Positions 3,690-63,865 of a stretch of 64,000 bases of DNA are shown one piece after another. The stretch comes from Mytilus trossulus (taxonomy: Eukaryota): positions 58,218,001 through 58,282,000 of the forward strand of contig NC_086386.1 of NCBI RefSeq assembly GCF_036588685.1, read 5' to 3'. Position numbers and translations under genes: made by a program. Each line of letters starts with the position of its first letter. The stretch's first letter is position 1. Below the pieces are notes generated by a model, which saw only the letters and a program-made list of their open reading frames with translations, did not search any database and had not been told where the DNA came from.

Positions 3690-6405
3690 TAGTATTAGTG
3701 CGTGATTAAAGATACCAAATATGTGAATGACCAGACTTCACGATTTGTCATTCAGTGGCCTTAGAACTAATTTAAAATACTATTTTGAGTTAACAAAACA
3801 CATAAAATATTAAATATTGCTCCTATACGTTATCATATAAATGAATGTAGATTTACAATAGCAACACATTATTGAAGATTTTCATTATCATAGATTAAAA
3901 TGAAATTCATTATAGTTCCATTTACGGAATTATTAAAATTCAGTTTCTGCCGACGTTCTCGTGCTTGTAATTTTATATTGTGTGTCAATCTAATGATAGT
4001 TTATCAGTCTCCACCTTACAGTTTGAAATTTAATGAACATAACGTGCATACAGTGTGTAGATTTATTGATTAAATGCATATGCTTCTTACGTCTTAACGG
4101 AAATACAACAAAACAGTCAAGACTATTTTTAATCAATAAATACAGTGTATTACTTTAGTTTAAAAAAGTCTCAATTCGAAAAACTTCAGATTCTACTGGA
4201 ATAAGATCATTGGATTTGCAAACAAAACAGTGGCTTACTCTTGTTTTAAGAAAGTATTTTTTTCAACCCCATCAGCAACCTTTAAATCATAAATACCATT
4301 CTTTTGTTTGTCTTTGATAAATGTTGACTATTCTCTGTATAAGATATGATTATCTATTTTTGATTTAATTTAATTTTAATTTTGAAAACAATGATATATA
4401 TGTACCAATAACTAATACATGTCATACATGTATATGGTGTTCAATGCTTATTTGTAAAACAAATATATAGGAACATGTTTAAGAATGCTTTGAGATCCAT
4501 TTTTCTGACAGATGTCAGTCACATCTCACAGATTTGAATCATGAAAAGCTAGATTAGAAATAAGCGGATTATCTAAAGCTGGTATATAAATCAACATGTC
4601 ATTTTCTCGCTCAGTTGTTTTCTTTATACTTGCATTGTGAATAGGAGTTTCATCTGATAGACATATATATATATATTAAACTATTCGTTTTTTAACTCCT
4701 ATGCAATCCAACTTAAATCATACCTACTGACATTTACATTGGTATAGTATTGTATAATTGACGTTCGAGTCGTTATATTTAAATGTTGCTTAGATATGAG
4801 GAGGTATATCTATTTTGGAATACTAATTGAGAGTCCGAAAGTATAAAACAAGGGTGAACGCAAATGTTTGACTTAGATCATAAAAGTGGCTTGTAAATTC
4901 ACACCAGCATGATTTACTGTTTTTGGATGGTCAATTACGAACCTTAGTGTGAACTCCGGGAAACAAAAAAAAGATTGCACTAAACTGGCACTGCAAAATA
5001 AAAAAAAGTGACCAGATACATCTTTAAAGTTCGATTTACCTTTTCTGTTGGCTATTTTAACTTCAATGCAAAATATAATTACATTTGTTGAATTTCGTTT
5101 GGATCCACTCATACACTACTTGTGTAAGTTTTTCGAAAGAAAAAAAAGCCAAGAATTGCTGTACGTTTTGCTAAAAATATATTGATATAAATGTATGCAC
5201 ATTTATGTTTGCACGACATGAAGGAATATAGAACCAACCAAATTTTACCTAGAAGTAATGTGTTGTCTATTCTTTTTGCACTCAGTCTTGATTTTGTGTA
5301 TCAAAAAATTAAATGACTTTTTACGTTTGAATAATGATAATAAAATACAAATGGAATACTATTTTAGCATATATAACAACAAACCATTACACAAACAAGA
5401 GCAAGCTGTGTCGATGCTTTATATTATTGGTCAGTTGTTTGCACCTGACTATATCTAACCACACACGAACGCAATTGGTGTTCATCTGTTGGCATTATTC
5501 TTATCTTTATTTCAAACATTAAAGAAAACGATACAAACCGATCAAATCAATTACACAAGGCGATTTCTTCATAAGCATGTATTTATAAAGACCACACTAT
5601 GATTATCAACCTTAAACGTAATAAATAAGCCATGAAGTGCTGCGAATTATATGCAGAATCGTCTTTTTTTGCAAGATAGCTTACATAACGACATTTTAAT
5701 TGTCACGTCCTCGAATTGAATGCAATGCAGAACTTCTTAAATGCTATCAACGCGTAAAAATCAGTGTTCTACCTTGACCGATTGCATGCTTATCGTTATC
5801 AATCACAGACATTATTAAAAACTTCTCAGACTTATATATGATTGTACTTTTAGATGTTGACTTTCATGTACACCATTATGTGATCTTTTATCACTTGATA
5901 TTGGAATATACCCTTGATAGCAATATGAAATGCTGTCATGTATGAACATATATTCCCATTGCATTCATTGAAATATATCATGAATAAATATGTTAAAATG
6001 AGGTCACCTCTGTCATAAATTTGTGTAATTATGCAATGCCTGCGTTCATAAAATATTTCATTGATAAAATGTTTGCATGTAAAAAGCGCACACACAAAGT
6101 GTTGTTGTACTGCTATTTAATGCGACAATGAATAAAAAACGCTATGTGACATAATAGTACAGGACAATACAACAAACAGATGAATGTATGCATCAGGTTT
6201 TTATAAAAGTGTCAGGTTGGCTATTTTACAAATGAAACAAATCAAAACATTGAATTCTTTCATTTTTCAAATCATAAACATCTTGATTAATCTTATACGA
6301 GCTTGCATAAGCAATATCAGATCACCAATCGTGAATTAATATTCAGAATTGTATAGAGTTACCTTATCACATTTAACATTTAAATGTCACACCCAGTTTT
6401 GAATA
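3690..6405. repeat. ~2.7 kb segmental duplication, paralog at 14515-17200
   Basis: Colinear shared strings, e.g. gtgattaaagataccaaa, cggaaatacaacaaaacagt, ttgcactaaactggcactgcaaa, caagatagcttacataacgacattttaattgtcacgtcctcgaattgaatgcaatgcagaact. Confidence 0.95.
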
Positions 6406-14514: not shown

Positions 14515-17200
14515 TAATGAGTGATTAAAGATACCAAACCTTTAAGTGAATGACCAGACCTCACGATTTGTCATCCAATCTCTTTAGAACTAATTGAAAA
14601 AATACTATTTTGAGCTAACAAAACACATAAAATATACAATTTTGCTTCTATATAACATACGTTATTATCAAATTTAATGTAGATATATAATAGCAACACA
14701 TTATTGGAAATTAAAATACAAATCAGTATAGTTTCATTTACGATATTAGTTATATATATTCATTTTTTTGTCGATGTTCTCGTGCTTATCTATTGTGTGT
14801 CAGTCTAAAAACCATTTCTCACTCTCCGTATTATATTTTGAAATTGAATGAGTATAACGTATATATAATTTGTAGATATATTTATTAAATGGATATACAT
14901 CTAACGTCTCAGCGGAAATACAACAAAACAGTTAGACTCTTATTATCAATACACGCAGATACAAAAGCACTTGTAGTTAATGTAATATTTTAGTATTTAA
15001 TAGTCTCAATTCGAAACACTATTGATCCTTCTTGCACATGATCTCTGATTAATTATTGTTTGGAGGAAGTACTTTGTGTGTTCAACAACATCAGCAATTG
15101 TTTAATCATAAATACAATCATTTGTGTCATTTATTATTATTGAATGTTCTCTTTATAACATATGATTATATATTATATATGTTTTTTTAATTTAATTTTA
15201 ATTTTAAATACATGTATACATAAACCCTTACTAATAAAGTTTAAACATGGATAAATATGATGTGTATTGCTTGTTTGTTGCACCAACATATACGAACATG
15301 TTTAATAACGCTTTTTATATCATGACATTTATCTGATAGACGTCAGTCGCATCTCACAGATTTGCATCATACTAAGCCAGATTAGAATTGAGCGGATTAT
15401 CTTAAGCTGGTATATTATAAGCATGTCATTTGCTCGCTCAGTTGTTTTCTATGTACTTTCATTGTGAATAGCAAAATATATGTGAAACCATTCTTTTTTT
15501 TGTAACTCATTGGCAGTCCGACTAAAATCATACACAACGACCTTAATCTTAATGTAGTTTTATATAATTGAAGTTCGTCTCTCATATTAAACCGATAATT
15601 CGTTATCAACATGTATATCTATGTTGAAAAAACAATCCAGAGTTTAGAGGTTTTACACACGTGTTTATGTCAAATGTATTCCTAGATCTTTAGAGTAGCT
15701 TATAAATTGATACTGCCTTATTGTACTGGGATCGGTTTGCAAATCACGGCACCAAAGGAAGTTTTTTTGTTTGCACTAAAACTGGCACTGCAAATTACAA
15801 AATTGAATCAGATACATCTTGAAATATTAATTTTTCTTTTCTGTTGGCTATCTTAATGTGAATGCAAAATATAAAACAATGTGGCTGACATGTCGTGTGG
15901 ATCCACTCATACGCCTTCTGTATTAGTTCTTTGAGATAATAATAAGAAAGTTCCTTATTGCTGTACATTTTATGAATACATAGATTTATATAAATTTGTA
16001 TTTTCACGACCTAAAGATGAAATTAATATAGAACCAATACATATATACCAAGAAGTAGTGCGATGTCTGTCTTTTTTGTATTCTGACTTTTGTAATTGAT
16101 CACAATCTCGATTGTATGTATCTAGAATTGAAAGACTTTTGTACATTTAAATACTGATAACATACTACAAATGTAATAATACTTTAACATTAATAAAAAT
16201 GTATATAAACGTAAAGTATCATTACACAAACCACAGTAAGCTGTGTCGATGCTATATAAAATTGGTCGGTTATTTGCACCTTACTTTATCTTAACATACT
16301 CATGAGTAATGTTTTTTTTTTTTATCTATTTGTCAATTCTTATCTTTGAATTCAAACATAATGAGAAAGAGATAGTAACCGATGATTCTTATATTAAACA
16401 AGTCGATTTCTTGTAAACCATGTGTTTATAAAGACCATACTAAAATTATCAACCTTAAACGTAATTATTTAGCCATGCATTGGGGCGAATTATATGCAAC
16501 ATCGTCTTTTTGATCAAGATAGCTTACATAACGACATTTTAATTGTCACGTCCTCGAATTGAATGCAATGCAGAACTACTTAAATACTATCAAAGCGTAA
16601 TGATCAGTCCTCTTTCTTCACGTCTTGACTGATTGCATGCTTATCGTAATGAATCACAGCCATGATTAAAAATTTCCCAGACTGATAGCTGCTTGCACTT
16701 TTATATGCTCATTTTTAAGTACAAATGTGATCTTTATACACTTGATATTGAAATATAGCAAGATTAAATGATGTCATGTATGAACATACACACCCAGTTG
16801 ATTCATTGAAATGAATTATGTATAAATATGTAAAAATGAGGTCAACTCTTTCATAAATTTGTGTAATTATGCCATGTTGCGTTCGTAATATATTTCATTG
16901 CTACAATGTGTGCATGTAAAATAGCACAACATATATGTTGCTGTGCTGCTATTCAATGCGACTACGAACAAAACATAATATGTGACATACTAGTTTAGGG
17001 CAATGCAATATTTGTTGTTTGTCAATTGAACCAACTCAAAATTGAATCCTTTTTATTTTTAAAATCATAAACATCTTTGTTGATCTTATATGAGTGTGCA
17101 TAAGCAATATTTGACCACCAATCGTAAAATAAATATTCAGAATTGTATAGAGTTTCCTTATCACATTTTGTATTTAAATGTCACACCCTGTTTTGAATTT
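14515..17200. repeat. Second copy of the ~2.7 kb duplication
   Basis: Same orientation and block order as 3690-6405. Confidence 0.95.
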
Positions 17201-18811: not shown

Positions 18812-19328
18812 TTAAAAGAGATGTGAAATTGAGTCTGATTTCATTTGTCACATGCATGCATACGTTTATTCATTGGTTATTGCCTCAGCATGTCCTTTAA
18901 TCAGACCCCCAGCCGAGCTAAGTCAAATAAATTGCCATGTTTTATCAATTCTAGGATTTTCGAAAGGGTTTACACATTTTAAACCCCAAATAATGCATAT
19001 ACGCGTAAAAAAATCTGATTTTGAAGGGGAGTGCACTACCGCATTATATTCTTGGATTTTTCTGCGTACTTCTGTACGGAAAAGTGACAGTTTGTTCCTT
19101 TTTTAACATGATCCTTGTCAAATTATTGTTGTGTTCATTTGTCCTTTGAGTACTTGATTACTTCAGCCAGTTGTATAAGTAAGATAAAGTTGTTGCATGA
19201 TAACAATCACCTAAGTTTATCGCTCAGATCAACGCTAGATAAATGACAAGACGTCGGTACTTACTTATAGGCTGATTTGGTGCCTTTCCTGAATGTCTCG
19301 GAGAGTAAATGTAACAACAAACATGTCA

Positions 19329-19479
19329 TTGCAAGGTATATTAGATGAACAGCAAACGTGGCCTTCTTGACCAAAAGGAATTTGTTGATTTATATACACC
19401 ACACAGCTACAAAGACGCCTAACATTTGTAACGGCTCTTATGTTGCTCGGAAGAGTTTATGTAAATAAAAGGCAGCTTT
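19329..19479. repeat. 150-bp direct repeat, partner at 23913-24062
   Basis: ttgcaaggta.attagatg.acagcaaacgtggccttcttgac...ggaagagtttatgtaaataaa.ggcagcttt, roughly 90% identical by eye. Confidence 0.9.
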
Positions 19480-20061
19480 GTTAAGACTTTAACTCTTAAG
19501 ATATAAATAATAAGGACTTTGAGTTTTGGCATCACGGTAGAAAACCACGAATAGTCAATAAAACAGGTTAATGAATTACCTACCTTTTAAAAGAATCACA
19601 GACTTGGGACTATATCTCTTCATATTGACACCGTCACATTTAATGAACGAAGGAGGTAATCGATCAACATGTATGGTTATACAAGGAACATACAATCAAC
19701 GAATTAGATGTCAATATCAAAGTACGTTGTTCGCCTTAAGGTAAGTTATAACCAGTGATAGTCAAACTAATAAATTAATCTGAATATTGAAATAAAATAT
19801 ACATGGTGTGCCATTTTTTCAAACCACTAGATATTCACGATCAGCATTTATTGGGGCTAGTTCTTTTAATCCTTTTTTTTTTTAAAAGTATTATTTATTT
19901 GTTACATTTTTGCACCTCATTATTATCTTGTATTTAGGGGGGGGGGGCTATAATTTTTTTGAATTTTCTGTTGAAACATTTTCTGATGTGCACCTTTTGT
20001 TCATTGTTTAAAAGTATGTTGCTAACTCAACCGGATCTTATATCATTGACTTGTACTTTAA

Positions 20062-20334
20062 GGTGGTACCCAACACTTTCACTAAAATTAATTTGGTTCG
20101 TTTAATTTTCATAAAATTTTGACAATGTATTTACTTTGACCCTTTAACAAAAATATAAAAAATTCAAAAATTTTGAACCAACCGTTTTGTCAGAAAAAAT
20201 ACACTGGTTATATAGCAATTTGACAAACACCAATTTTGATCATTGAAAAGCTTAATATTCCCTTTACAACACAACGTAATTAAAACGTTTAGCTGACTTT
20301 ACAGAGTTATCTCCCTGTAGTGTTAGGTACCACC
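20062..20334. mobile_element. TTAA-TSD MITE (Kolobok/piggyBac-type), 273 bp
   Basis: TTAA|ggtggtacccaacact ... agtgttaggtaccacc|TTAA (16-bp TIR, 1 mismatch). Confidence 0.9.
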
Positions 20335-20353
20335 TTAAATAAACTCCGAGATC

Positions 20354-20582
20354 CTCTACAGTAAGGCCTAGGACACAAGGTCCTAGTCACCGTGTGCTGT
20401 CGCGGGGAGGCACTGTAGAAGTCGTGTTAGTGTAGAGGCTATGTACCGGCAGGACAGACTTACGCACTCGCTCGGCTTTCTTTTCCCCTATGAATATAAG
20501 CTATCCAGCGGCAGTTTAAGAGTCTATGACTCCCAACTGCACTAGGCGCATACACAAACCTGTGGCAACACCACCAGCACAC
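20354..20582 (-). ncRNA. HDV-like ribozyme fold with long J1/2, partly degenerate
   Basis: Minus strand: P1 GTGTGCT(20582-20576)/AGCACAC(20398-20392), P2 TCTACAGT/ACTGTAGA, P3 GCC/GAC with L3 TCCCCGC, P1.1 GG, P4 CTAGGAC/GTCCTAG, J4/2 GCCTT. Elements are in canonical HDV order. Confidence 0.65.
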
Positions 20583-21728
20583 ACTATATTAAGTGGGTAT
20601 ACTATAATCTGTTTTGTATTGTCTTTAATCATATTAATAAAATTCATTTTTTAAAACAATTCACAACCTGCTGTGTATCATATGAATATGTTGAAACAAT
20701 TGAACTATCTTTATATTTTCCCCGCAGTAAAAGAGAATATTTATTATACATTTTTATGAGTATTTAACCCTTCACGCAGGTATTTGCTCATTTGTGCATG
20801 CTGAATTGTGACATTCAAAACATATAATAAATCTGTTTTTTATCAAAAGGAACAAACGAATAATATGTTTCAAACAATTCATGGAAATGATGCTGGATTT
20901 TATTCCTTTTCATGTTTTCACAGCATCAGATATTCAATTTGATCACACGATTAAAAACTCATATATTCACTCAAGCGTGAAAACAAATAACGAGTTCCGA
21001 ATAAAACCGAAGCGATATTACCAGACAAAACATATATACAAAACCACAAGACACCGTTTTAATGAATAAGTCCAAATCTATATTTTAATAAATTGGCCAT
21101 TATTTGAAATAATGCTGTTAAATTGCTTCAAGGGATCGATCAAAAGCGCTGTACTGAACATTGACAGTTATTTGTTTCAGTCGGGGAAATGTTGACTCCC
21201 GAAGATATACGTGATAATACGCTTAGATTTACTAGTCATTCAACTCTTAAAAGATGTTCATTTACATGAATGTTCCGGTCGCACCAGCTGATCGGAACTG
21301 ACTTTAATATGGCAAAACGTCTAATTGGAAATAATCCTTTTCAATTTGTTTTCTTCGTCAATAGATTAGCTTAAAAAAAGATGATTATGTCATTAAAAAA
21401 AGTAGCTCTGTGTTTACCAGCACAAGGTAATGGATCATTATACTGTATCAGAATATATCGGAAATTCTAAGATAATTCCCTGATATTTTATGAAAAGACA
21501 TTTACATCGTTGACATTTTCTGCCAGTAAGATCGTTAAACTCTCAGTATTGGTGATTAAGCCGTTGGATATTCATCATAGTAAGAAATGACAAAGTTAAG
21601 TCGTTTACCTGGGAACATTTTTTTTTTCAATAATGAAAAACAGTATCTGGATATACATAAGCACTGATTTATCTGGAGATCAATTAAATGCAAATATGCC
21701 AAAACTGGATTAGTTGAAATGACAGTGT

Positions 21729-21802
21729 TGTTAATGCAGCTCATTCGTTAAATACAGATGTAAATGCAGCTCAATTGATAAATACAGATGTTAATGCAGC
21801 TC
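21729..21802. repeat. 30-bp tandem repeat x2.5, ~90 bp upstream of the candidate first exon
   Basis: tgt(t/a)aatgcagctca....aaatacaga repeated. Confidence 0.8.
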
Positions 21803-21890
21803 TACTTTTTAATATAATTGTGAGTTTATTTAACAACACATACATTTGATTTGATAAACGACATTTCATATTTGTGTGATGCACTAGGAG

Positions 21891-22106
21891 ATGTCAATGT
21901 TGACCAGGAAGGGAACGATGGTTCGTAAGAACCGAGGGTCTTTAAAACGACAATCGGTTCGGAGACAAGGGAACGGATCCATAACAAGGAAACAACAAAA
22001 AACAACATCGGAAATGCCAGAATCTCCTCGTGTCATTGCTGTCAAGCAACAGGAATTTCAATATCCCCAGTCATCGCCGACAAGGAGTGTTGCAAGCACT
22101 ATTGTA
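21891..22106 (+). CDS. Probable first coding exon (72 aa, basic/Ser-Pro-rich), possibly of the TMEM272-like gene
   Basis: GC-richer open frame from ATG (MSMLTRKGTMVRKNRGSLKRQSVRRQ...SPTRSVASTIV) ending at a consensus GTAAGT donor in phase 0, compatible with the phase-0 start of exon 62145. Linkage to the downstream exons is inferred. Confidence 0.6.
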
Positions 22107-25300: not shown

Positions 25301-28300
25301 AGGTCTATTTAGGTCGAATAACCATACTGTTGAACACATCACGATTTTGTAAGAAAGAAACGAATTTGGGCAATTTATTGTTCATAACAGGACTTTAGTT
25401 AAAATCGGCATGGGATAAAAATGGACTAAGTAACGCTCAAATAAAGATTAGTTTTTATAATGCAGGCTTTTACTAAAATGCAGTGCAGTTGCTATATTGG
25501 GACATGTTGAGTTGTTTAAAGCAATTTTGGTGAGATATGTTTTGACTAGTCTGAATAAGTCTGAAATAGATTTAAAAACATAAAAAAATCCCCATAAATT
25601 AGGATTTCACAATTCATATTTACCATAGATTAGGAATCGGCAACAGATCTGGAACCAATCATAAATTTTAGTCTTACATATTTATTATCAAATTGTGTTT
25701 AAAGGGTTGCTAAGTTTATTGCAGGGTATACACATTGCAAATTCATATAGTTCTTATTGAAACAACACATTACAAACAACACCTAGTAATTCTATATTTT
25801 GAATAGATGGCCTACAAACGAATATATCCAATTAATTAAAAACATTCAGTTGTAGTTTCAAACTTTTAGATTTGTGGGAATTTTTGGGGTTTCTTACATT
25901 TGCGTTATATGGTTACGCTGTTACATACAGACGGTAATAAATATATTTCATCAAAAAATATATATTCAACATTTAGTTATTACAAAAAATAGTATGGTTT
26001 ACCAAATGCCCATGGTACAGTCGAATTGATATCGTCATCATCAGCTAATATCTTTAATCATGCTTTTACTTAATAATTGGGAAGCAAGAAATCTAAGGAT
26101 AAATTAGATTAAACGAATGCGGATTCATAATTGAGTATGATTAACAATACAGTCTAGTAATAGCAACCTAAGCATAAAGTACCAGTGTGCTCAGGTGTTA
26201 GTGGTATTATACATGCAATACTTTGCGCTTTTATCGGCCATTTCGTTTTAAATCAGATCATGACTAAATCCTCACAAAATGATTATCTCTTAAAGACTAA
26301 TGGTATCTAATGGTGTTGTTGACAAGACGGAGCATGATTGAATGTATTGATAACTAAACGTACTAATTATTGACACATTTAAATTTTACTTTACGAAGAA
26401 AATCCCTGAAACAATTTGAATGCCTTTATATAGTATATATTAGTGCCTTGATTCCCAATTTACCTGGACATGAAAATGGAAACATGCATTTATGTATCAT
26501 GTAAAACGAACTAATTGAATCAAAAAATTAAACGAAAACCCATATCGACCTCTTAACATATTTGAAATGATGCATTGATGACTTTTTTGCTGGTGTTTCC
26601 ATAATCTTGAATAACAATTATGTCCAATTTGTTCCTACATCATGTTCGATTCAAAAAACGCAAAATAAGAAATGCAACACTTCAAATTGTTCATTTTGTT
26701 AACACAAAAAAATAGTGAAATTTCAATACACAAAATAAAGTATGCAGTTGAAAAAGGAACAGTATAATTCTAATGTCGGGCAAACATAGAATGTTATAGA
26801 ATCACCGCATTCATTTATTTGTTTTTTTCAAGATTATTTTTATTTGTAAATTATTAACAAACATTGCTCACACCAGCAGGAAATATGCTTCCATAAGTTT
26901 GACCAGATCATATAAAGACGTCATTTGGTTTGCTGATAAAACAAAGACACACTTTGTTTCTATCATAGACAAAACCAACTCAATAGCGCAAGTGTATAGT
27001 TGTCAGCTTATTGATATTGTAAAATACCACCTACAAGACACAGTATGCAGCTCACGCTAAAAAAAGTTAAATTTTGTTCCAAGAAGCTGACATTTTATAA
27101 TATAATTTTGCTGATAAACGGTAGGATTTTAACTGAATTATTGGTATAAACATATATGATAGATATATACGAAGATATTGTATGAGTGCCAAAGAAACAA
27201 CTCTCCATCCAACCTACTGTTTGTAAAAGAAAGATTTTTTTTTGGTCAAAGTACGGTCTTCAACACGGAGTCTTGGATCACATCGAATAGCAAGCTATAA
27301 ATGGCACAAACAACGACTTATGAAACACGATTCTAACGGGAAAACCAACATAATAATCTATATAATAAACGAGAACCAGAAACACTTCTAAACTACACTA
27401 ACAAACGACAACTATGCAAATTAGATAATCTATTAGTCTTTGAAATTAATAATGATATACTGTCAGTTATGTTTTTTTATAGAGATAAACACATTTATTG
27501 TTTATGTACGATGTTGTCGCAAACAATACTGTTGGGGAATCTGAAATTCTAATGTGACTTTTCTTTGATTCAAGCTATTGTTGTTCATTTCAAGTAAACG
27601 GCAACAAGAAATTGCGAATTATGAAAAACTGATAAATGTTAACTTTTGCTTACACATTTATCAATATTTGACTGTTTAACGTGTATTGAAAGTTGATAAA
27701 TGTCAAAATGGCAATGAGAAACGAAGAAAAGATGAACGTTTAACCCCTTTTTCATAATATTGTTCTGCTAGTTATCTTACAAATGAACCTATTAAAATGT
27801 AATCATTTGTAATAGGAACAATTAAAAACATAATGTATTAGCTTGTACAAACACGGTTAAATTACCAATCATGGATTTAATTTTCAGAAACTTGTAGTTT
27901 TTTTACTTGTGCAATTTAACGTAACACCCAATTTTGCATAATGCATTTTGTAAATTAAAAAGCTTTAGCTTTAAAGAATATACGTTATAGATTATAACGA
28001 TCTTTCAATGTACAGCTCGGTAAATTGAAACAACTTTCAGCTAATTTCTTGCATATCAATTTATAAAATTAATCAAATTGACAAAGCCTGCAAAAGTAAT
28101 ATTTTATTTGTACAGCAAAAACATAGTATTGTTCATAAAGTCATGAACGTAATATCACAGGAAATGAACAATTTGCTTATAATGTATAAAACTTGTTTTA
28201 TATGCAGAATGGCATGTCACTAAACTACATGTCAGGATTTCGTATGTGTCAAAAGTATGCCGTTGGGTTAGTATAGCCCTAAATGTAAACATATTGTTTT

Positions 28301-34078: not shown

Positions 34079-37000
34079 CAATATATATAAGTGATAGTCA
34101 TGGCCAATGTCATTGCGGCAACATATATTAATTCGTTCAATTGTATGTTGTGTGATGTAGGGTTTTGATCTCCATTACAGGATACGATCAATGCATACAG
34201 TTGATAACATATAATTCATTTCAAACATACTGTACAAATCATTGAGCTATCTCAAACGATAATACGATTGACGAAATGTCAATTGTACAGATTAATAAGT
34301 ATCTGCATTCTCATAAGCTGATATAGCTTTGTACGAATTTAGATATTATTGGAAATCAATCAATCTGTAATTCGACTTAACTGATGTGGATAAATGGTAA
34401 TTCAATATGATTGAAATGTATTAAATCTATTGATAACAACCGGAGCTGGAGGTACACGTGTGATCAGGTGATAGTCGGATTACACATGCTACACCTTTTG
34501 CTGTATTTACACTTTGTATTTAAATTCCAACATTGTAATACTCTGTTCACAATCAATAGCAGTGTACTGATGCTATCCAATGTTGTTGAAAAGACGGGGT
34601 AGGATTTGATTATTGATAACTAAAAGTTCTAATTAGTGACAAATTGAAATTTACACTGTCGATGAAATTCCATGAAACGATTTGAACAAGTATAAACAAG
34701 TGTTTTAATTCTCAATTTATCTGAACATGCAAACGGAAACATGTATTCACGTATCCTGTTAAATGCATTTATTGAATCAAGAATTGAAACGACAACCCAT
34801 ATCAGCCCTTAAACATATTTAAAAGGATGCATTAATGACTGGTTAGCTGCTGTTTTGATAATCTGACATAACAATTATATCCAATTTGTATCTAAATTAT
34901 GTTCGATGCATACTCCAAACGACCAAAGATTGCAAAACAAGAAATTCAACACTATACAATTGTTCATATTGTAAACAAAATATAAAACATTAGGTTATAA
35001 GTTTAACTAACACATATAAGTATGCACTGGAAACCGTAACAACATAACTTGAATGTCAGGCAAAAATGAATTGACATACAATCACTTCTTTCTGTAATTG
35101 TGTTATTATTATATGTACTGGTAAATAATTAAGAAAGATTCCTTACACTAGACGGAAATATGCCTTCCGTTTTGGATGCTCCGAATTGTGTTCCGCTTCA
35201 ACTACAATCTCTCAACGTGGAGCTTACTGAGATCAGTAACATTATAAAGTTGTTGCGGATAAATGTGTAAACTTTTTAATTCAGTGGTGAGATTTGTAGC
35301 TGTACAATCATGCTATTTTATGTTTTTGAGCGGTAAGGAAACGGGCGTATACACTATTGTAAAATTCAAACATACAATTTACCTTGTGTAAATTTATATC
35401 AATATTTAAACACCAAATGAAACATATGTTAAATGTATGTGTTTTATATATTAACTGATAAAAAATAGTTGAATGACTCTAGCATGTCTAGTAAGTACAA
35501 TTCATAACTATTTTAATAAATCTAAATGAAATATAGTTCGGAAAATATTTATATCATGCTGACCATTCTTAGATTTAAGTGACCAATTTCTCAGTTTCAA
35601 GAAAAAGGCAACGATAACAAGAAATTGTAAAATCATATGGAACTGATAGTGTCAACCTTGTTTTGCAAATTTATCAACTTGAAACTGATAAACGTGTATT
35701 TAAAGCTGAGAAATGTCAAATTTAAGTTCGAAATGTCAAAATGCCAATATAAAATGAAAAAAGATGAATGTTTTCATAATACTTTTCTGCTAGTTATCAT
35801 ACAAATGAACGAATTTAAATGTTATCTTTTTTTAATGATAAAATAATAACCATAGTGTGGGACTTTGCACAAACACTATCAGATTACCATTCGTGGAATT
35901 ATTTTTCAGAAATTTATTGTTGAATTACCGAATTTAAAGTAAAACATAATTTTTCATAATCCATATTGCAATTTAAAAGCCTTTAGCATAAAAGATTATG
36001 AATAATATATTATCATGATATATCAATGTGTAGCTCAGTCAATCGAAACAATTATCTGCTCATTTGCTTTTGAAGCAATTACATAGCTCGCTTTTGCATT
36101 TTGCCTTGTTTCTAAAATACTTCACAGGATTTCGTTTAAAATGCACGCGTAGGAAAAAGTTTTATCTTAAGTAAGTACTGTTAATACTGTTGAACAAAGT
36201 GATACATACAAACTCTCAATCAGTGATAGTCTGCAATTCGTCCTGATCTTGATATCACCAAATGAAAACGATTGTTTCTGTTGTTGCAGAGCTTTCACCA
36301 GAATTTTGTTCACTAATGCGCATGTTTCATGGTTCTTTGTTTTTTATTAGATGGGTAGCAATTAAGATAGTATACATTTATATATGGGAACCTGCATTGT
36401 TTCTCTTTCCTTTTTGTATATAGATTAGACTGTTAGTTTTTCCATTTGAATGCTTTCATACTAGTAATGCTGGGACCCTTTATAGCTTGCTGTTCGGTGT
36501 GATCCAGACTCCGTGTTGAAAACTGTATTTAACCTATAATGGTTTAATTTCCAAATTTTGACTTCGATAGAGAGTTATCTATTCGACACTTATACCACAT
36601 ATGCTTATGTCAATAAACTGTAGTTGTCTTGGTGCATTACATATTTTGTATAATAATATTTTGTAGAAATACAAAAAAACATTCTTTTGATGTTATACAT
36701 TATCAACAAATAATTATAAGATCAGAGCTTCAATCAGTGAACATTTCTTTTGGTTTCAAGAAACAATGATAAATATAACTCACAACAAACATTTGCAAAT
36801 AATTTTATTTCATTCCGTTAGCTTTCATGCTATGAATTCAACTTTACCTCAGAAATATTGATCAAACATCAAAGTCATTTGGTTTTTGATTCCAAAGATT
36901 TTGTTGTTGTTGCTGTCTTATTGTCAATTTATTAGTCTTTTATAGAGATTTCTCAGACAGAAATGTTATAATTACGATCAAAGATGTTCAAATTCCATCT

Positions 37001-38812: not shown

Positions 38813-40667
38813 ATACAGTTTATTTATGGAAAAACATACCGAAATCCTATGTATCCTTAATCGTTTATTTTCTTATATGGTGTAATAAATAAAATCGGAC
38901 AGGAGCTGATATATGAAATTTGTTTTTTAAACAAGATCCAGATATTTAAAGTTCAATAAGAAAAGGAAATCGTTGCTTTGCTATTGTCTTATTATATGGG
39001 TAATTGTTATTGCCGATATGCATTTTTTTCCATCTAATGAAGGAAATGGACATTGATTATGCGTTAATTTATAATCAAAATATAATATAAATCGGTTAAA
39101 GTTCTGGAGTTGTACTCATTTGGACATTGACCACCTGTTGGTAATTACGTTAATCTTGTTTTAGACCAATGTTTGCATGTACTTAGTTTAGTCATTGTCT
39201 TAATGTTGACGATATATGTTTATGAGATCATTTGTTATTTTACCAGCATTTAAAAATTTGATATACAGAATCCAGCACTCTCACGCAAATAAAAATGTAT
39301 TTTTGTTTCAGGATATTCAACAATAAGATATACCTGTATTTTCACTCACTTCTATGTCTGAAATAAAGGCAACAGTCGTATACCGCTGTTCGAAATTCAC
39401 AAATCGATTGAGAGAAAAAAACAACCCGGGTTTCAAACTAAAACTGAGGGAAACACATCAAATATAAGAGAAGATGTAAATAAAATGTATGCATGTTGTG
39501 TTTTCAAATCATGTATTGGACATTTATAAGATATGTAGTTACTTATTTGACAAATATAATCATAGCTTCGAATGCTCAGACAATATGATGGTCGTCTTAA
39601 ATTCAAATGAACGGATTATGAAATGCATGTATCGTTATTTTGTTTATACCGGATTGGTCAGAAATATGATGAATTAAGAAGATATATATAGAAAGATATG
39701 TTGACCATGTTTACACTTCCTGGTATAAGTAATTATGGAGTCGAGACAATTCCACCAGGATAGGTTCCTTAAAAATTTGCATCTTTAAAATTAATTTACT
39801 AGTGTTGAACAAATGAAAACTACAATTGCCTTAATAAGATTGATGGTATATCTGACGAAACTTCACCAAATATATTGTAAAAGTATATTTTTAAATCCCT
39901 TTTGATAATGTTTGTGTCATTTTTATCTTTGTTTTATGTTAAAAATCAATCTTTGAAATATGAATTTCTTGATGGTTTCTCCAGGGAAAGCTACCGTGTT
40001 TCAAAGATAATTACTATCTTCTGTTGATATTTTTTCCTGATATGTGATTTTTTAGAATTTAAAATACCCCTTTTAATTCTTCAAAGCAAATGGAATACAA
40101 CTAAACTATATTTGTCATAAAGATCGCCCATTTACGTAAGTGGGTAAACAAAGGCCTCTTTTGGAGATTACAAATTACTTCAAATGAAGTAAATGACAGA
40201 TCCAACATTTGCAAAATTGACTACGGAGACAATTTAAAAATTAAAAATACCCGTTTTGATTTCAAATTCAATTTACATCAATCTCCAAAAGTGATACATA
40301 TTGCAGATTCCGGTTAATAAAATTCAAATGAGATAATTAAGATTATTTTCAATATACCTTTCTTCATTGAGTAAATGTGTACGCTTTTTGAATTTAAAAG
40401 TTTGTTCAAATCAAACCGGTGACATCTTTGCGTAATTTAGAGAAAATGGTTGGTATATCTGCATTAATATGTGTTCTGATCCGTTTCTTAGTTTAGAGCT
40501 ATCTAACATTTTGTATTTGGCAATCCCTTTTCTGCCATTTTGAATTTTGATAGCATTAAGTTTTGAATTTTAACAGCGTTTATTTTTATGGTATTGGTAG
40601 CATCAAATGATGAATATTGATATTATTATGATTTGGAAAATTGTAAAAATCATTTTGTTTCAGATCT

Positions 40668-47249: not shown

Positions 47250-48086
47250 TTAATGGTGTCACTACCAATGACATCACTTCACCAATTACATTGTCAAATG
47301 ATATTTTGAAATCCATTTCGATAAGGTTTCTGTCATTTTTATCTTCTTTTATGTTATTAAAAGTCGATCCTTGAAATATGAATTTCTTGATGTTTCCTTC
47401 AGGGAAAGCTGTCGTGTATCAAAGATAATTGCTACTCTTAGTAAACATAATTTCCTGAATGTGATCTTTTAGAATTTGAAACACATATATGAATTCGATA
47501 TAGTTACGGGAATAAAACTAAATGATATTTGTCCTTTTATGCAAGTGGGTAAATAAATGCATCAATGTAAGTGTACATATTACTTCAAATGAATTAAATG
47601 ACTATTTCTGACATCTGCTTTATTGACCACAAGGACAATTGTCCAACAAAATAACATAATTGTGTTTTCTATTTCAAAACACTCCAACATGTCATAGACT
47701 TGATAGAAAGAAAACTGATGCATATTGCAGATTCCCGTCAAGAGTTATCTGAACTTTTCCTTGTTAGTTCCTATATTGAGGTATGGAAACTACTGAAATT
47801 TGTTCACGATTCAATATTTTGTCACTTAGACACTATTTTGAATAAGATAAATAAGTTCTTGAAAATACAAGATTAACAATTAACCGAACGCTAGGTCAAT
47901 GACCTTGAAAATACTACCCTAGAATTAACACTGCTGTATATCAGATTTTTATCACAAAATACCAATTGCCCAATAATCATGTCATATATCAGTACCAATA
48001 ACATTGATTTTCTTGATAGAGGGTTGCGGCTCATATTGCAAAAAAAAAATAGGTCACCGATGATTTAAAAAAAAAACAATGTAAAA

Positions 48087-48390: not shown

Positions 48391-49699
48391 AATGCAAAAA
48401 TAAACCCATTTTTGCACCAAAATGAGATAATTTGGAGCTTTCACAATGATATATACGTTTTAAAAGTCCCTTTGGGCCAACACGAATTGATTTTTTGGAA
48501 TCATTTTTGTACCATATGATAAAGTAACAACTACTTAAGGTTATAAATAAAATTTGTAATGAAAAAAATAATGTTTAATTTTTTTTCTGAAAATCTTATA
48601 CCCGCGAGTCTTCTTAATTGATGGATTGATCGTTTGTTTTTGAAATGTGTATTAAGTAAGCCCGGAAGGGAGCTGACATATACAACCTTTTCCTGTAAGC
48701 AAGATCTTCATATTCGTTTGACATAAGAAAAGGAAATTGGTAATTTACTATTGTCTTATGTTATATGTGTTTTCAATCTTGCTAATATGCATTTTATTTC
48801 AGCGATTTAAGGAAATGAACATTGATCATGCGTAATATGATTAGTAAAATCTAATCTAAATTAATTGACCATCTGGAGTTGAAATCATCAGGTCATTTGC
48901 CGCCAATTGGTAAATACCTTAACCTTGTTTAAGACCAATGTTTGCTGGTTCTTAGTGGAGTCATTTTCTAATTGTTGACAATTCATCAATTATATTGTAA
49001 AATTATATTTTGACATCCCCTTCGATATCTTTTTTGATGTAATTAAAAGTCGATCCTTGAAATATGAATTTCTTGATGTTTCCTTCAGGGAAAACTGTCG
49101 TGTATCAAAGATAATTATTAATTTTAGTAAACAAAACTTCTTGACTGTAATCATTGTAATCTTTTAGAATTTTAACACAAATTTTAATCTGTATAGTCAA
49201 GGGAATAACACTAAATGATATTTGTTCATTGAGGCAGGTTGGTTAATAAATGCATCAATTCAAGAGTAAATATTTCTTGAAAATGAAATAAATGACTATT
49301 TCTGAAATCTGTTTTATTGACCAAAATGACAATTGTCAAACATAACAGCAACTTTATGTTTTCCAATTCAAAACACGCCATCATGTCATAGACTTGATTA
49401 AGAGAAAAGTGATGCATATTGCAGATTTCCGTCAATAAATTTCAAATTATGAAAGTTATCTTAACTTTTACATGCCATTTCATATATTTAGTTAAAGTGA
49501 ACGCCATTTGAATCTAAATGTTTTAATCAAACTGGTGTTATATAACAGTAGAAAGACAAAAGGCGTACTACATACATTCCTTGAACTATCTAACGTTAGG
49601 TACGTGCATGATCCTTGTTCTGCTATTTTACATTGAAATCAATTTGCGACCATCAAATCCCCAATTGATGATGTCGGAGCTTAAAATACAATACAGTTA

Positions 49700-50112
49700 T
49701 CTCCTAATTGTAGACATAAATGACTTTTTAAAGCACCAAACCGATCAAGAACAAAACACAGACATGACAAAGATCCAATGTGTCAAACACTTAGGACAGT
49801 GGTGTTGGTCATTTTGTGTCATGTGTAATGAACTTGTTTGTCAAAGTTGCATTTCTAGATTTCATAAGAACCATAGCATGACAGGAATAACTGAAGCTTT
49901 TCATGAAAAATTAAAATTCTCAAAACAAAGGAAAATAGTATAAATCAGAAAGTGTGTGAATTAACTGCTCATGAGACAAGTCTCGACAAATTTAACACTT
50001 CAGTTTATGACAAAGTTAAAGAAGAAATATTAGATAAAGATAAACAATTGAAAGAAAAAATAAGCGAGAACACAAAAAAACTTCTTGAGGAAATTGATAG
50101 TACTACGTTTTG
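49700..50112 (+). pseudogene. TRIM-like fragment: B-box type 2 plus coiled coil, frameshifted
   Basis: CVKHLGQWCWSFCVMCNELVCQSCISRFHKNH (49779-49874). After a frameshift near 49925: KENSINQKVCELTAHETSLDKFNTSVYDKVKEEILDKDKQLKEKISENTKKLLEEID. Confidence 0.8.
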
Positions 50113-51345
50113 AATATTGATAGCAGTTTTTATTGTGGTGTTTATGCCTTTTAACTGTAAAGTACCCTGAAATGGTTAGTATCTATACGAACAAGGTTTC
50201 AGATAGATAAGTATTTTCTTATATTTTATATTAGACTATAACAATTTAATACAATGTTCAATAATATTATACTACAATTCAATTCACTGATCTGAAATTA
50301 ATGATATACATTTCTTCATTACATGTTATCAAATTTAATAACGCCCGTATAATACACATATTCGAAATTGATTGTTCCCCTTTTTTCTTAGTTTTGACAA
50401 TGAGCTTGATGGCAGCGTATGTTATTTGACAAGAATTGTAATAAGTATTAATTTATTATCGCTGTAGGTTTCAATCATTATACATACGTGTAGCTAAACT
50501 AAAAAAGCATATAATGTACATGTATAGATACATATATAAACCCATGCGACACATCTAGTCACGACAATAAAACTAAAGACAATATTATAATATTCTTAAA
50601 TTCAAGTATAAAGAATACAATAATCTTCATCGTTACTCTTTTTTTATATATGAATTTAAATGAACTATGATGCTATTATATATTCACATTTATAAATATA
50701 GATAGCAAGTATTATCTTCCTGGTTTCCGTACTTATGATTGGTTCTTGAAATTGAATGTTCAAGTGTAAAACAAATGAAAACCACTGCTGTCTAAGTTGC
50801 ATAACTAATTATTTTGTAAAATAATATTATGAAATCCATTTACAAAAAACAACTGTAATCATTAAAAAAATTGTTTGGTGTAATAAGAATGTAATCTTTA
50901 AAATATGAACTCCTTGATGTTTCCTTCAGGGGAAAATGTTGCTAATCAATAATAATTGCTTCTTTGAGCTGACATTACTTCTTGATATGTGAACTTTTTG
51001 AATGTTAATCACAAATATTCAATTCTATATAGAAAATTAAATAATACTAAATGATAGTTGTCATACAGATTGTTCATTTACGCAAGTGGGTACATAAATT
51101 TCGATATTTGGAGATTAAAGATTACATAAAATTAATTAATTGACAATTTAAAACATCTGCTTAATTGAAGACGTGATGGTTATGGGGTCATAAACTAATA
51201 GACTAACTTCTTAAAATACATCTTATCGTATAAAGTACATTCAGTTGTGTCTTCAAACCCCAAACATTGTATCTTTTGTCGAAGTAAGTTAAACTAAAAT
51301 AGTTCCATTTATTACAAATCATGCATTTGTCATAAAACGGACTTT

Positions 51346-58900: not shown

Positions 58901-59129
58901 CATGTATATTTTGGTTGTCTATATTATATCAATCCTATTTATTAGAAACAAAGAAATATACTCTGATTTGTCATGTTTTTTCTTCCGCTCATTGCCCTTA
59001 CTGTATTCTTCTCCCTCGACTCATGAGTTGTGATATGGTTTCTGGTATGTAACCACTCTGAACAATTGTACACGTTAGCCGTTAATAGAATGGATACATT
59101 TTGTGAGGTTGCTAACATATATGACCGGA

Positions 59130-60441
59130 CAATAAACTTGTATCTACCGCTTTACAAGCAGAAACAAAAACATTGAAAGTACCAAATATGTATTGGCTTT
59201 CGAGACTACATAAAACAACTTACAAATATAGATTTATTTCCTCATCAAGCCATTGTTCCACTACTAACTTATCTATTATTCGTACCAGTACACTTGGTAC
59301 AATCAAAAACCTGATAACAAAATGTTCAAACAAGGCCTTCGAATACAATGGAATTAGTTAATTTGGAGTTTCAAGAACTCGTTGGAAGTATTTTATAAAT
59401 GGCATGCATATATTAGGGATTTTGAATCTGTTCAAAGTATTGATTTTTCTAACCTTTATACCACATTGCCTCATATTCTCATAAAGAAAAATTCACACAC
59501 CTAATTAGATGCGCATTTAAAAAGTCAGAATGTGAATATATATGTTCAAATTCTTTAAGGTCATTTTAAGTAGCAATAAGCAAAAAAAACTATGTTAATT
59601 AGACATGCTTTGATACTATATCTGCCCTTGGATTGTTACTAGATAATATTTTTCGGATATCCGGATATCGTCAGGTTATCGGAATTTTTATAGGGACTAA
59701 CTGTGCACCACTTATTGCGGACCTGTTTTTGTATTGCTATGAGTTACAATTTATGACAAAAATCAGCAAAGCCCCATCGAAACAACATCTGATACACAAA
59801 TTTAATCATACTTTCCGATATTGGATGATCATTTGACTCTCAATAGTTCCGACTTTGGTATGTATACTAAGAAATGTGCCCTGTTTAACTTACTTTAAAT
59901 AAAGCTAAAACTAACAATGACCACTGCCCTTTCCACGATCTTGATATCTGTATCATTAACGGAAAGCTTCATACTAAAATTTATGATAAAAGACATAATT
60001 TCTCATTTCCTATCGTTAATTATCCATTTTTAGATAGTGACTTTCTCTTGTCACCATTTACGGTGTTTATATATTTCAACTTGTACGATTCGCTCGTATA
60101 TGTAACAATGTTTTAGATTTGTAAAAATATTACACCAGAGTTTTCGATATCACAAACTAGTCAAACAAATTACTAAATGTTATCATCGGTATAAGAACAT
60201 CATTCGTAAATATAGCTCAACCTGCAGACTTCTAAAAGGTTCAGGTACTTCACATCCAATATTTTATGGACATATTCTTTTAAAAGCACAAAAATATTAG
60301 TATTCACCTAAGAGGCTAAAACAACCTTTAAATAGACTTATTAAGAAGGGATATAGTTACGGTACTGTAGTCAGAACATTAAAGATTGTATATTTTGGCG
60401 TTAGTATTGATTTACTTATAGGGTCTTTGCATCGGAACTAA
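59130..60441 (+). pseudogene. 5'-truncated, frameshifted reverse transcriptase of a Penelope-like element (Naiad/Chlamys-type)
   Basis: Fragments across frameshifts: VPNMYWLSRLHKTTYKYRFISSSSHCSTT; LYTTLPH; YRQVIGIFIGTNCAPLIADLFLYCYE; FRY(L)DD; CPFHDLDI; TKIYDKRHNFSFPIVNYPFLDSD..YGVYIFQLVRFARIC; ends SLHRN-TAA at 60441. No C-terminal GIY-YIG, consistent with the permuted (N-terminal EN) clade. Confidence 0.9.
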
Positions 60442-60842: not shown

Positions 60843-60900
60843 TTTTTTATATTTTGTAATTTGGAGTTTAGTATGGCGTTCATTATGACTGAACTAGTAT

Positions 60901-61416
60901 ATTATATAAATAACACATAGCTGAGAGGGTGATAGAACAGATCGGTACCCCGAGAAAACATTGTCAACCGCGGCGCAGCCAAGGTTGACAATGCCTTTTC
61001 GAGGGGTTCGAATCTGCTCTATCACCCTCTCAGCTATGTGTTATTTAATTTATTATACTGAATGTCCTATCATTATTGACTTTTACGGATTACTTTTATT
61101 TCAAAAGTATTTTCTATGACGTCACGTTTATAACAACATTACGGGCATTAGAAAAAAAACCCAATAAAAGTCAAGCAAGATGTTTTATTTTATTTATTCT
61201 AACAGTCGATATTAAAATCTGAGCCAAAACGAAGAACTTAAGCATTCTATGTAATTCCTTGATGTAAATTCAATTCTTTGAATTATCGATTTCTGATTAG
61301 TGTAGACGAGAGGGTCACATTAAAACAAATTGTCCCGGCTCAGCCATGTGATAGAGTAAATTGACACACTCGTCTTAGCCAATCAAAATATGGCATTTTA
61401 ACGTGAAGTATAATAA
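60901..61416. mobile_element. Insertion with long subterminal palindrome (possibly non-autonomous Crypton-type)
   Basis: Interrupts the family-A sequence between gaactagtat and atatatttgtt. Hairpin 60907-61047 has a perfect 30-bp outer stem; no TIR or TSD seen. Confidence 0.7.
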
Positions 61417-62144: not shown

Positions 62145-62319
62145 TCATTTGACGATGAAAAGCAGTTGTGTAAAACATCAATTGATTGGAGAAAAAACAA
62201 ACAATGTGACCAAGAGCCCCAATATGAAGCAATTATGATACAAATCCAGGAGGCAAACAAAGAGGCTGAAAACACATGTGATTTCATTTGCAGAAGTAGT
62301 AAAATAATGTGTCATACAG
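62145..62319 (+). CDS. Internal coding exon of a TMEM272-like membrane protein gene (N-terminal cytoplasmic part)
   Basis: Pyrimidine tract + CAG acceptor (cttttaattttcag|62145) and CAG|GTGAAT donor. Encodes SFDDEKQLCKTSIDWRKNKQCDQEPQYEAIMIQIQEANKEAENTCDFICRSSKIMCHT plus 1 nt; the phase-1 end splices in frame to 63486. Confidence 0.75.
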
Positions 62320-63485
62320 GTGAATAAATTATGTTTTACAATTCCTACAAACGTTTTTAATATGCCTCGCTAACACAGAGTTGTCATGTCTATTCTTTCC
62401 AAAGCAAATTCAATTCAAAAGTTTGCAGTGCAACCAATCTTAGTCTTGTTAGTAAAACAACTTGCACTATTTACAACGCATATGCAGCTTATTCTACATG
62501 ATATACTGACTGAACGAGGATTTTAAGATTGAGACAACACATTTAATATCAGGTTACATGTTATTAACTATATATGTGTGTGAAACAATTTTCCAGCTAA
62601 TATGATTTCATATCAATACGATACATGTACTTCAGACTTCGTGGATCCTGTCCAACATAAACACGGCTAATTTGTAATTGTCATAATCGATATAACGTTC
62701 TGCCATCTTTAATGTTAATATGAATCATATGAATTTTCTATATGGAACCTTTTCTATTATTTAAGATTGTTTATATCCGGCTTGATATGTTGTGTGTATT
62801 GATTTCGCTGGACGGCAGGCTAATACTTTAACTTTCAGTTCTCTTCATTGAAACAGTCTGTTGCTACATGTACGCAAAACTAAATGCATGAGGTATAAAT
62901 TTCATGTGAACGGTAAACAGGCTATGTTTTGTTTTCATTCTTAAACTTAGAATAACAAGAATACTGATCCCCTATGAAAATTGAAATCGTAGCACTGTAA
63001 ATAATACAAATATTTGTCATAATATACATGTACGTACCAAAGTGTTTTATGTAATGGTATTCTTTCTGTACCTTCTGAACTTCTTTGACTATAAAATTCA
63101 ATGCTGAGATAATTATGTTAGCATAAAACATCAGGCTGTCGTTTCCTCCTGCATGATGAACCATTTTGATAATACTTAAGACTTCTATAAAGTTGGAAAA
63201 TACTTTAAAAGAGAAAGCCAACACGCTTATTTATTGCTATGGAATTCACTTAAAAAATAATTGCAGACAACCTTGGCTATATGATACATTATACTTTGGT
63301 CGATGATCACGACTATTGTAAAGAATTGATCAATGCAGATCTTATGAAATACTTTTATTTTAATAAAAACTGATTTGTGTAGCTTGTTTGTTGGATATTG
63401 AATGTATGAGGACGCGGATGACTAGACAGAACGTCTTATTTTATTCGTATTGATTGATTTGTATCACATTTCATTTCTGTTTTAG

Positions 63486-63545
63486 TCCTTGTTACAGTGA
63501 TTGTTGGTTTATCAATGGCCTTACCGATTACCATGATGTCAGTAG
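63486..63545 (+). CDS. 60-nt exon of TMEM272-like gene (first TM helix)
   Basis: ttcatttctgttttag acceptor, G|GTAGGT donor, phase 1/1. Gives (V)LVTVIVGLSMALPITMMSV(G), hydrophobic and in frame with both neighbours. Confidence 0.85.
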
Positions 63546-63865
63546 GTAGGTAAATCTGGATCAATTATCAATAGTGAGAGCAATATAATTAAAAATGTAG
63601 AATATTACCAGAAATTATTAATTAATTGTTGTTTTTTTTTCTGCTAACAAATGAATTCACGAACTAGTATATTACACCTCGTGTGGAAACTGATACAACA
63701 TATTGCATGCATGTCTTGTTGTTGAGTGACTCTGTCATTGGCATACACAAATAATTCATATGTCCATTGTAGCCCGAATATACATGTAAAATTTGGCAAT
63801 GAATGTACTTATGACTAACAATGGTTGATAGCTAGTATTTAAAAATTTTCTTGTTTACGTTTAAG

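Follow-up and report, generated by a model that had tools for sequence, protein, structure and literature searches.

Genomic Context of the Ribozyme-Like Relic

The window analyzed in this study, i.e., the whole stretch of mussel DNA with a length of 64 kb, has an overall GC content of 30% and carries a stretch of 229 nt that reaches its highest GC value (0.52, followed by 0.46 for the next-best stretch), which corresponds to the GC-rich island previously proposed for this locus. On the minus strand, this island is predicted to fold into an HDV-like ribozyme (Table 1). The sequence shared with a second copy of the same element, identified in metagenome data and designated L001, ends at 20343, 10 nt after P2; it is referred to as the relic in the following. 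Four unrelated bases follow, and then a MITE. Such a TTAA-flanked MITE had been announced about 15 bp downstream of the ribozyme, and it indeed begins 15 nt after P2, so that 4 nt separate it from the relic. Judged from the type of its ends, it presumably belongs to the Kolobok superfamily, and it is extremely abundant, with a summed contig depth of over one million (1e6) in the public sequencing run X1. As the element sequence known from L001 does not contain its TTAA site, the insertion of the MITE looks like an event separate from the loss of the element's 3' part.

The candidate first exon, expected about 1.3 kb away and in antisense orientation to the ribozyme, was identified as the first coding exon of a TMEM272-like gene, located on the plus strand at a distance of 1309 nt from G20582. 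The named relative of this gene originates from scallop (47% identity), in line with a bivalve as the likely host. Within the window, the gene spans 21891-63999 (plus strand), and its first coding intron measures about 40 kb (22107-62144). Being antisense and placed 1309 nt ahead of the start codon, the relic would not cut the TMEM272-like mRNA.

Further features were observed elsewhere in the window. Between 24300 and 50000, inside the TMEM272-like intron, many old segmental repeats with identities of 66-80% were detected (Table 1), and a duplication of 2.8 kb connects 3696-6404 with 14515-17198. A stop-to-stop frame on the plus strand (49527-49943) features a Cys/His pattern, which we take to resemble a B-box, and probably represents a gene fragment inside the intron. 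Broken reverse-transcriptase-like frames, presumably Penelope-like, are located at 59125-60116 on the plus strand and, judged by their distance and strand, have no relation to the ribozyme relic. Finally, an inverted repeat of 164 nt (60896-61059), being 83% self-complementary, is likely another MITE.

Table 1. Features of the ribozyme-like relic, its surroundings, and the contigs aligned to it (positions refer to the window).
Feature	Position	Strand	Remarks
Whole relic	20343-20582	minus	shared with L001:146-383; 227/242 columns identical
P1	20582-20576 with 20398-20392	minus	7 bp, G1-C pair at base
J1/2	20575-20422	minus	154 nt; peripheral domain predicted to contain several helices, about -49 kcal/mol by itself
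Strand within J1/2 able to pair with P1 5' strand	20450-20441	minus	10 bp, prediction
P2	20421-20412 with 20362-20353	minus	10 bp, one U·G
P3 (GCC/GAC)	within 20399-20411	minus	central C·A at 20410/20400
L3 (UCCCCGC)	20408-20402	minus	same letters in window copy and L001
P1.1 (GG)	20391-20390	minus	GG in both copies
P4 hairpin	20386-20368	minus	7 bp, 5-nt loop
J4/2 (GCCUU)	20367-20363	minus	GCUUU in L001; putative catalytic C 20366, or 20365 in shifted register
Contig departure points	20584 (X15:15); 20583 (X15:16); 20579 (X9:32)
TTAA-flanked MITE	20058-20338		21-nt inverted ends starting GG; separate element
TMEM272-like coding exons	21891-22106; 62145-62318; 63485-63547; from 63865	plus	first holds start codon
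Segmental repeats	25970-26892 with 34240-35168; 39860-40234 with 47276-47640, 48982-49537, 50804-51168

Predicted Fold and Its Statistical Support

All elements of the nested double pseudoknot claimed for the minus strand were recovered at the predicted positions and in the predicted order (20582-20353), including the hairpin gcagtt..gagtc/gactc..aactgc inside the 154-nt J1/2. In the window copy as well as in L001, 28 of the 29 core pairs are standard; within P3, two of the three pairs are standard and the central one is C·A. L3 fits the type UCCNCGY in both copies, featuring the U and the G to which the accessible sections of two reports assign the reverse wobble of HDV-like ribozymes (PMC6326823, PMC3774820), and the CC/GG pairing of P1.1 is present as well. 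The G at position +1 is paired at the base of P1, namely as G1-C in the window and as G1·U in L001. J4/2 contains a C in both copies and, in the direct register, UU in place of the RA of C-N-R-A, the putative catalytic C having been assigned by comparison with drz-Agam-2-1, a ribozyme from mosquito. Both deviations noticed in the original prediction, the P3 mismatch and GCCTT in J4/2, are present as described. Taken as a whole, the relic is predicted to adopt an HDV-like self-cleaving fold, for which the cut is expected 5' of G20582.

A relaxed HDV descriptor, permitting one P3 mismatch and any J4/2 containing a C, produced one match on both strands of the 64 kb, corresponding to the 20582-20353 fold. 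No match was obtained in 40 shuffles of the whole window, and none of the 20,000 dinucleotide-shuffled versions of the 290-nt island fitted the descriptor; as it had been loosened with the candidate already in view, the shuffle figure represents a ceiling on chance for the looser pattern. A fold that arose by chance in a GC-rich patch would agree with three other results: the strict descriptor (perfect P3, CNRA) had no match in the 64-kb window, an Rfam search of the ribozyme region (19000-22000) and of L001 returned no match to the HDV family or to any other ribozyme family, and the plain folding stability of the patch was unremarkable (z = -1.4). However, the shuffles, the coincidence of the repeat boundary with the predicted cut site, and L001, in which every helix is retained and an RTE-type domain is present (see below), effectively refute a chance fold, the probability of which is considered negligible.

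In both copies, the predicted minimum-energy structure is a competing fold that buries the 5' strand of P1 (-82.9, versus -68.5 for the native-like fold plus -12.5 for the P2 duplex, before any pseudoknot penalty). When P1 is forced, J1/2 folds as a multi-helix domain, and the strand 20450-20441 is then held in a J1/2 helix. Without constraints, this strand is predicted to capture the P1 5' strand in both copies, resulting in an inactive fold of similar energy, and such a competing fold could slow cleavage.

A Second Copy in Metagenome Data

Metagenomes were scanned with an exact pattern of the core, in which G or A was permitted at the P3 mismatch position, and a single match (L001) was obtained. 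The exact-pattern core scans had no match in viral contigs and none in prokaryote genomes. Moreover, 11 viral loci matching a loose pattern of the atypical core were discarded, as they were judged by eye to be devoid of P1 and P2. L001 starts at the same G as the window copy (G20582), the DNA upstream of it is unrelated, and on both sides the flanks of the two copies are unrelated. It had been proposed that other copies should keep the pairing of P1, P2, and P3 together with the cytosine in J4/2, and L001 does so, since every helix is kept and the C is present.

Of the nine substitutions that distinguish the window copy from L001, two hit one of the 58 columns paired in the core. Neither disrupts its pair: G-C is changed to G·U, representing the classical G1·U wobble in L001, and C-G is changed to U·G. 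A two-sided compensatory change was not found between the two full sequences (window and L001), and this lack of covariation is expected, because only two close sequences are available for comparison. Seven of the nine differences and an indel of 4 nt are common variants in the public runs, which places L001 near the family majority and identifies the window copy, being about seven changes away from that majority, as the derived one.

A Multi-Copy Family Sharing Its 5' End

The ribozyme was initially described as solitary, which is true within the 64-kb window but not in the genome, where the public runs point to a multi-copy family. In total, 20 of the 24 public runs listed contain part of the stretch, and none contains half of its words. 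Where a habitat is named, the matching runs are metagenomes of mollusc, gill, and seawater; three coded organisms come in addition. Contigs of four of these 20 runs (X1, X9, X15, and X17) were aligned to 19700-21000 at 80% likeness. Within the five bins of 20360-20579, the summed contig depth, which is no copy number, ranged between 451 and 2012 in X1, 56 and 1336 in X9, 152 and 484 in X15, and 0.8 and 3.6 in X17. The corresponding values were 58, 4, 15, and 0 in the bin 20580-20623, and 3, 0, 0, and 0 in the bin beyond it, and the flank bins of X1 reached values of 0-89. Up to 26-27 separate contigs per run carried one and the same variant, and the ribozyme family is therefore regarded as multi-copy.

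Three of the four listed contig pieces covering the ribozyme part leave the window sequence at most 3 nt from G20582 and continue with further unaligned letters (Table 1), the fourth (X17:24) simply ending at 20571. The similarity within the family stops at about G20582, which is the predicted cut site. Run contigs and L001 represent a multi-copy family that is dispersed and shares its 5' end, and ribozyme cleavage would be expected to leave just such a DNA boundary at G1 in several copies. The contig X17:24, originating from an RNA library, covers 20394-20571 with a depth of 3.6 and four differences from the window, the C·A being kept. It was not taken as an indication of expression, because it represents a different copy and DNA can occur in such runs.

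The location of the relic 1.3 kb upstream of, and antisense to, the TMEM272-like start codon, as well as the survival of the ribozyme part alone, would be in accordance with a host that kept the window copy for cutting antisense transcripts that leave the TMEM272-like promoter. However, the window copy departs from the family majority at about seven sites, as outlined above, and retention of this kind appears very improbable. No listed contig joins the ribozyme to the flanks of the window copy, and none of the runs contains half of the words of the stretch, although gaps of this type prove nothing.

Probable Relationship to RTE-Type Elements

L001 runs about 155 nt past the ribozyme, and this additional segment is foldable and richer in GC. 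Positions 453-474 of L001 agree in 20 of 22 letters with the RTE 5'-UTR domain that the supplement of PMC5786205 shows for OegopSINE and RTE-3_BF, which none of 200 shuffles did. A later block of the domain follows at the same spacing, as compared by eye. The GC-rich segment ends at about 535, right after the domain. In L001, the RTE-type domain begins at element position 308, similar to its position of about 325 in RTE-3_BF; it is missing from the window copy, and the rest of the element including this domain is absent from the 64-kb window beyond 20343-20582.

According to the available sections of Kojima (2018, PMC5786205), this domain lies in the middle of the 5'-UTR in RTEs of many phyla and occurs also in one Ingi element, one R4 element, and the tRNA-headed Ceph-SINEs, so that its presence does not prove membership in the RTE clade. 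The same sections name RTE among the clades with 5' ribozymes and count it among the four clades from which non-coding bipartite derivatives are known to arise. Because L001 continues into the RTE 5'-UTR domain and 5' ribozymes have been placed in RTE (PMC5786205), the parent of the relic is likely an RTE-clade element, as far as can be deduced from its sequence.

In agreement with the previous statement that no RT follows the ribozyme, a reverse-transcriptase frame was found neither beside the window copy nor beside L001, and downstream of the domain, the element strand of L001 offers no frame exceeding 40 codons. No tRNA was detected in the window, and the element starts with the ribozyme, unlike a tRNA-derived SINE. 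Likewise, an rRNA match, as would be typical of the 28S-inserted R2, was obtained neither in 19000-22000 nor in L001. A word of 5-6 nt located just before G1 in L001 recurs at 538 and may represent a target-site duplication; it is T-rich, was noticed post hoc, and is known from one copy only. For the window copy, the only matches of this kind were A/T-rich, 7-9 nt long, and far away, and they were taken as chance.

The first 20 letters of the domain in L001 (453-474) were also encountered as an exact motif in 32 phage-like contigs (L002-L033). These viral contigs are not considered relatives of the element, because the similarity comprises at most 25 letters and no HDV fold was found in the 700 nt upstream. 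In pattern scans for the RTE domain, the later block had no match in viral contigs, and no match was obtained in prokaryote genomes. As a rule, the phage motif closely follows a stop codon and is preceded by an extended Shine-Dalgarno-like stretch; it is also able to form a tiny H-type pseudoknot. Scanning with its upstream part revealed at least 105 loci (L045-L149), 90 of them being distinct among the matches listed. A strict pseudoknot test was passed by 17 of these 90 loci, which feature nine different stem pairings including two-sided changes, and many of the remaining loci listed are chance matches. An Rfam family was not assigned to the motif at the gathering score in 19 loci, nor at E-values of up to 10 in one locus, and this phage RNA motif is apparently uncatalogued. 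Its odd likeness to the RTE domain would represent convergence or a shared small pseudoknot. One of the phage contigs (L003) additionally encodes two DUF805b RNA motifs (1953-1989 and 2585-2623) and a tRNA.

Origin of the Relic

The assumption of the original prediction that the locus holds what is left of the 5' end of a retroelement headed by a ribozyme, or else an HDV-headed SINE, is borne out by the repeat boundary at the cut site and by L001 reaching into the RTE domain. With a probability of approximately 0.8, the relic represents the first 240 bases of a repeated element, likely of the RTE clade (either autonomous or a short derivative), the copy having been truncated on its 3' side. 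The RNA of the parent element would fold co-transcriptionally, the large J1/2 domain probably holding P1 and P2 together as in drz-Agam-2-1, and, by analogy with the R2, L1Tc, and mosquito ribozymes, the J4/2 cytosine would act as the general acid. Cleavage just 5' of G20582 would free the element RNA from the upstream transcript and give every full-length copy the same first base, as suggested by the repeat boundary and by the behavior of R2, L1Tc, and RTE. After insertion, everything located 3' of the ribozyme would have been lost, most likely by deletion; the window copy would then have gained its roughly seven private changes, and the MITE would have landed beside it. At its present locus, the window copy is probably inert. 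Target-primed reverse transcription usually truncates the 5' side, and relics comprising only the 5' part run against this pattern.

Both copies stop just after a structured domain, the window copy 10 nt after P2 and L001 right after the RTE domain, as would be expected if the window copy had been inserted as it is, i.e., if a stable ribozyme-only 5' RNA fragment had been reverse-transcribed in trans and no deletion had occurred. However, two copies cannot show a trend, the window copy has neither a target-site duplication nor a tail, and the depth in X1 and X9 rises towards the 3' part of the ribozyme, which is the pattern of ordinary 5' truncation. Insertion of such a fragment is therefore regarded as improbable.

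Compatible with the 3'-truncated copy, and differing only in the parent, is the tentative proposal that the family consists of an HDV-headed, SINE-like, non-coding unit of ~390 nt (ribozyme and RTE 5' domain) that the enzyme of an RTE mobilizes in trans. In this case, L001 would be a complete copy and the window copy a truncated one. The end of the GC-rich, foldable part of L001 at about 535, with no long frame behind it, and the possible target-site duplication at 538 are consistent with such a unit, as are the non-coding bipartite derivatives of RTE (PMC5786205) and the ribozyme-headed R2 SIDEs (PMC3414825), both as described in the accessible parts of these reports. Nevertheless, these features are known from one copy, the repeated word is short, T-rich, and was chosen after the fact, and a LINE-derived 3' tail was not recognized, whereas known bipartite elements have one. 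We consider a unit of this type possible, its likelihood being well below even.

Core Deviations and Predicted Activity

The C·A pair in P3 was found in the window copy, L001, and the RNA-library contig X17:24, and a J4/2 devoid of A in the window copy and L001. The original prediction envisaged a repaired version of the core; the deviations are real, but they are not decay private to the window copy, since L001 has both. It follows that 'repairing' P3 and J4/2 would restore no ancestral state shown by the data of this study. Variants restoring the P3 G or the AA of J4/2 were not present among the best 40 of 95 run-variant rows, which seem to be ordered by share, and probably do not represent the family majority.

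Three readings remain for the core, namely a working atypical core, a shifted register, and a dead fold. In the shifted register, C20365-U-U-A would be employed with U20412 unpaired, and L001, which does not have that C, would be a dead copy. In the HDV structure, the J4/2 adenosines presumably touch the middle pair of P3. The changes in P3 and J4/2 may be co-adapted, e.g., by a U of J4/2 pairing with the A of P3. A confirmation of the contact between J4/2 adenosine and P3 was not found in the literature: the available part of PMC9901934 gives no data on it, and the corresponding sections on HDV describe stacking of A77-A78 only (PMC6326823). The core departs from the HDV-like norm at P3 and J4/2, and the J4/2 A has been called 'constrained' (PMC3774820).

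A damaged master may have passed on a dead or very slow ribozyme, the common 5' end of the family being set by an internal promoter instead. The presence of both core deviations in both full copies and the competing fold as the predicted minimum-energy structure would fit this scenario, and the ribozyme head of L1Tc (Pr77) is described to have internal promoter activity starting at +1 (PMC3185411, available sections). However, both copies have retained P1, P1.1, P2, and P4 intact, as well as L3 (including the U and the G) and the J4/2 C. Furthermore, the active R2 ribozyme of the jewel wasp has a P3 mismatch (PMC3774820), and theta ribozymes tolerate an elongated J4/2 (PMC10879173), as reported in the accessible sections of both studies. 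A dead fold is thus a doubtful, though not a marginal, alternative. In our judgement, the odds are slightly in favor of at least some family copies being catalytically active and slightly against activity of the window copy. That a working ribozyme with a rewired core (P3 C·A; AA to UU in J4/2) heads a short, tail-less, RTE-derived bivalve element appears rather unlikely.

Should natural copies cleave without the J4/2 adenosine, which is regarded as near-invariant, the chemistry allowed for the HDV fold would be widened, and descriptor searches would be found to undercount such ribozymes. If the rewired core works, standard descriptors and covariance models would be blind to ribozymes of this type.

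Comparison with Known Ribozymes and Elements

Ribozyme-headed RTE elements are already known as a kind. The relic adds a bivalve family to the retrotransposons starting with an HDV-like ribozyme and indicates that ribozyme heads can be left alone near genes. In the literature searched for Mytilus, bivalves, molluscs, and mussels, the family was not found described, and the available parts of PMC4758252 and PMC7761336 do not describe it; Ruminski 2011, Webb 2009, or Repbase may list it.

The ribozyme drz-Agam-2-1 of Anopheles gambiae likewise forms a nested double pseudoknot with a P1 of 7 bp including G1-C, a long P2, an L3 of 7 nt, and a structured J1/2, its cut site being the start of the element, and its GG-UAA preceding P4 is matched in L001 (PMC4908430, accessible sections). 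It is active, and its structured J1/2 speeds up cleavage (PMC4908430). In contrast, J4/2 of the present family is GCYUU instead of GCUAA, P3 has the central C·A, J1/2 comprises about 150 nt, P4 is short, and activity is predicted only (compared with PMC4908430).

While the Ceph-SINEs have tRNA heads (PMC5786205, accessible parts), the family represented by the mussel window and L001 has a ribozyme head. The R2 ribozymes, as described in the available sections of PMC3774820, possess long J1/2 loops as found here, and that of the jewel wasp shares the P3 mismatch. R2 differs in its rDNA location and in the constrained A kept in J4/2 (PMC3774820), neither of which applies here. We take drz-Agam-2-1, compared above, to be the head of an RTE-clade LINE. 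According to the accessible sections, R2 SIDEs (PMC3414825) and NARTc (PMC3185411) carry the 3' end of their parent, whereas none was recognized in the window copy or L001; nevertheless, these elements are short, non-coding, and start with the ribozyme of the parent LINE, as may also be the case here.
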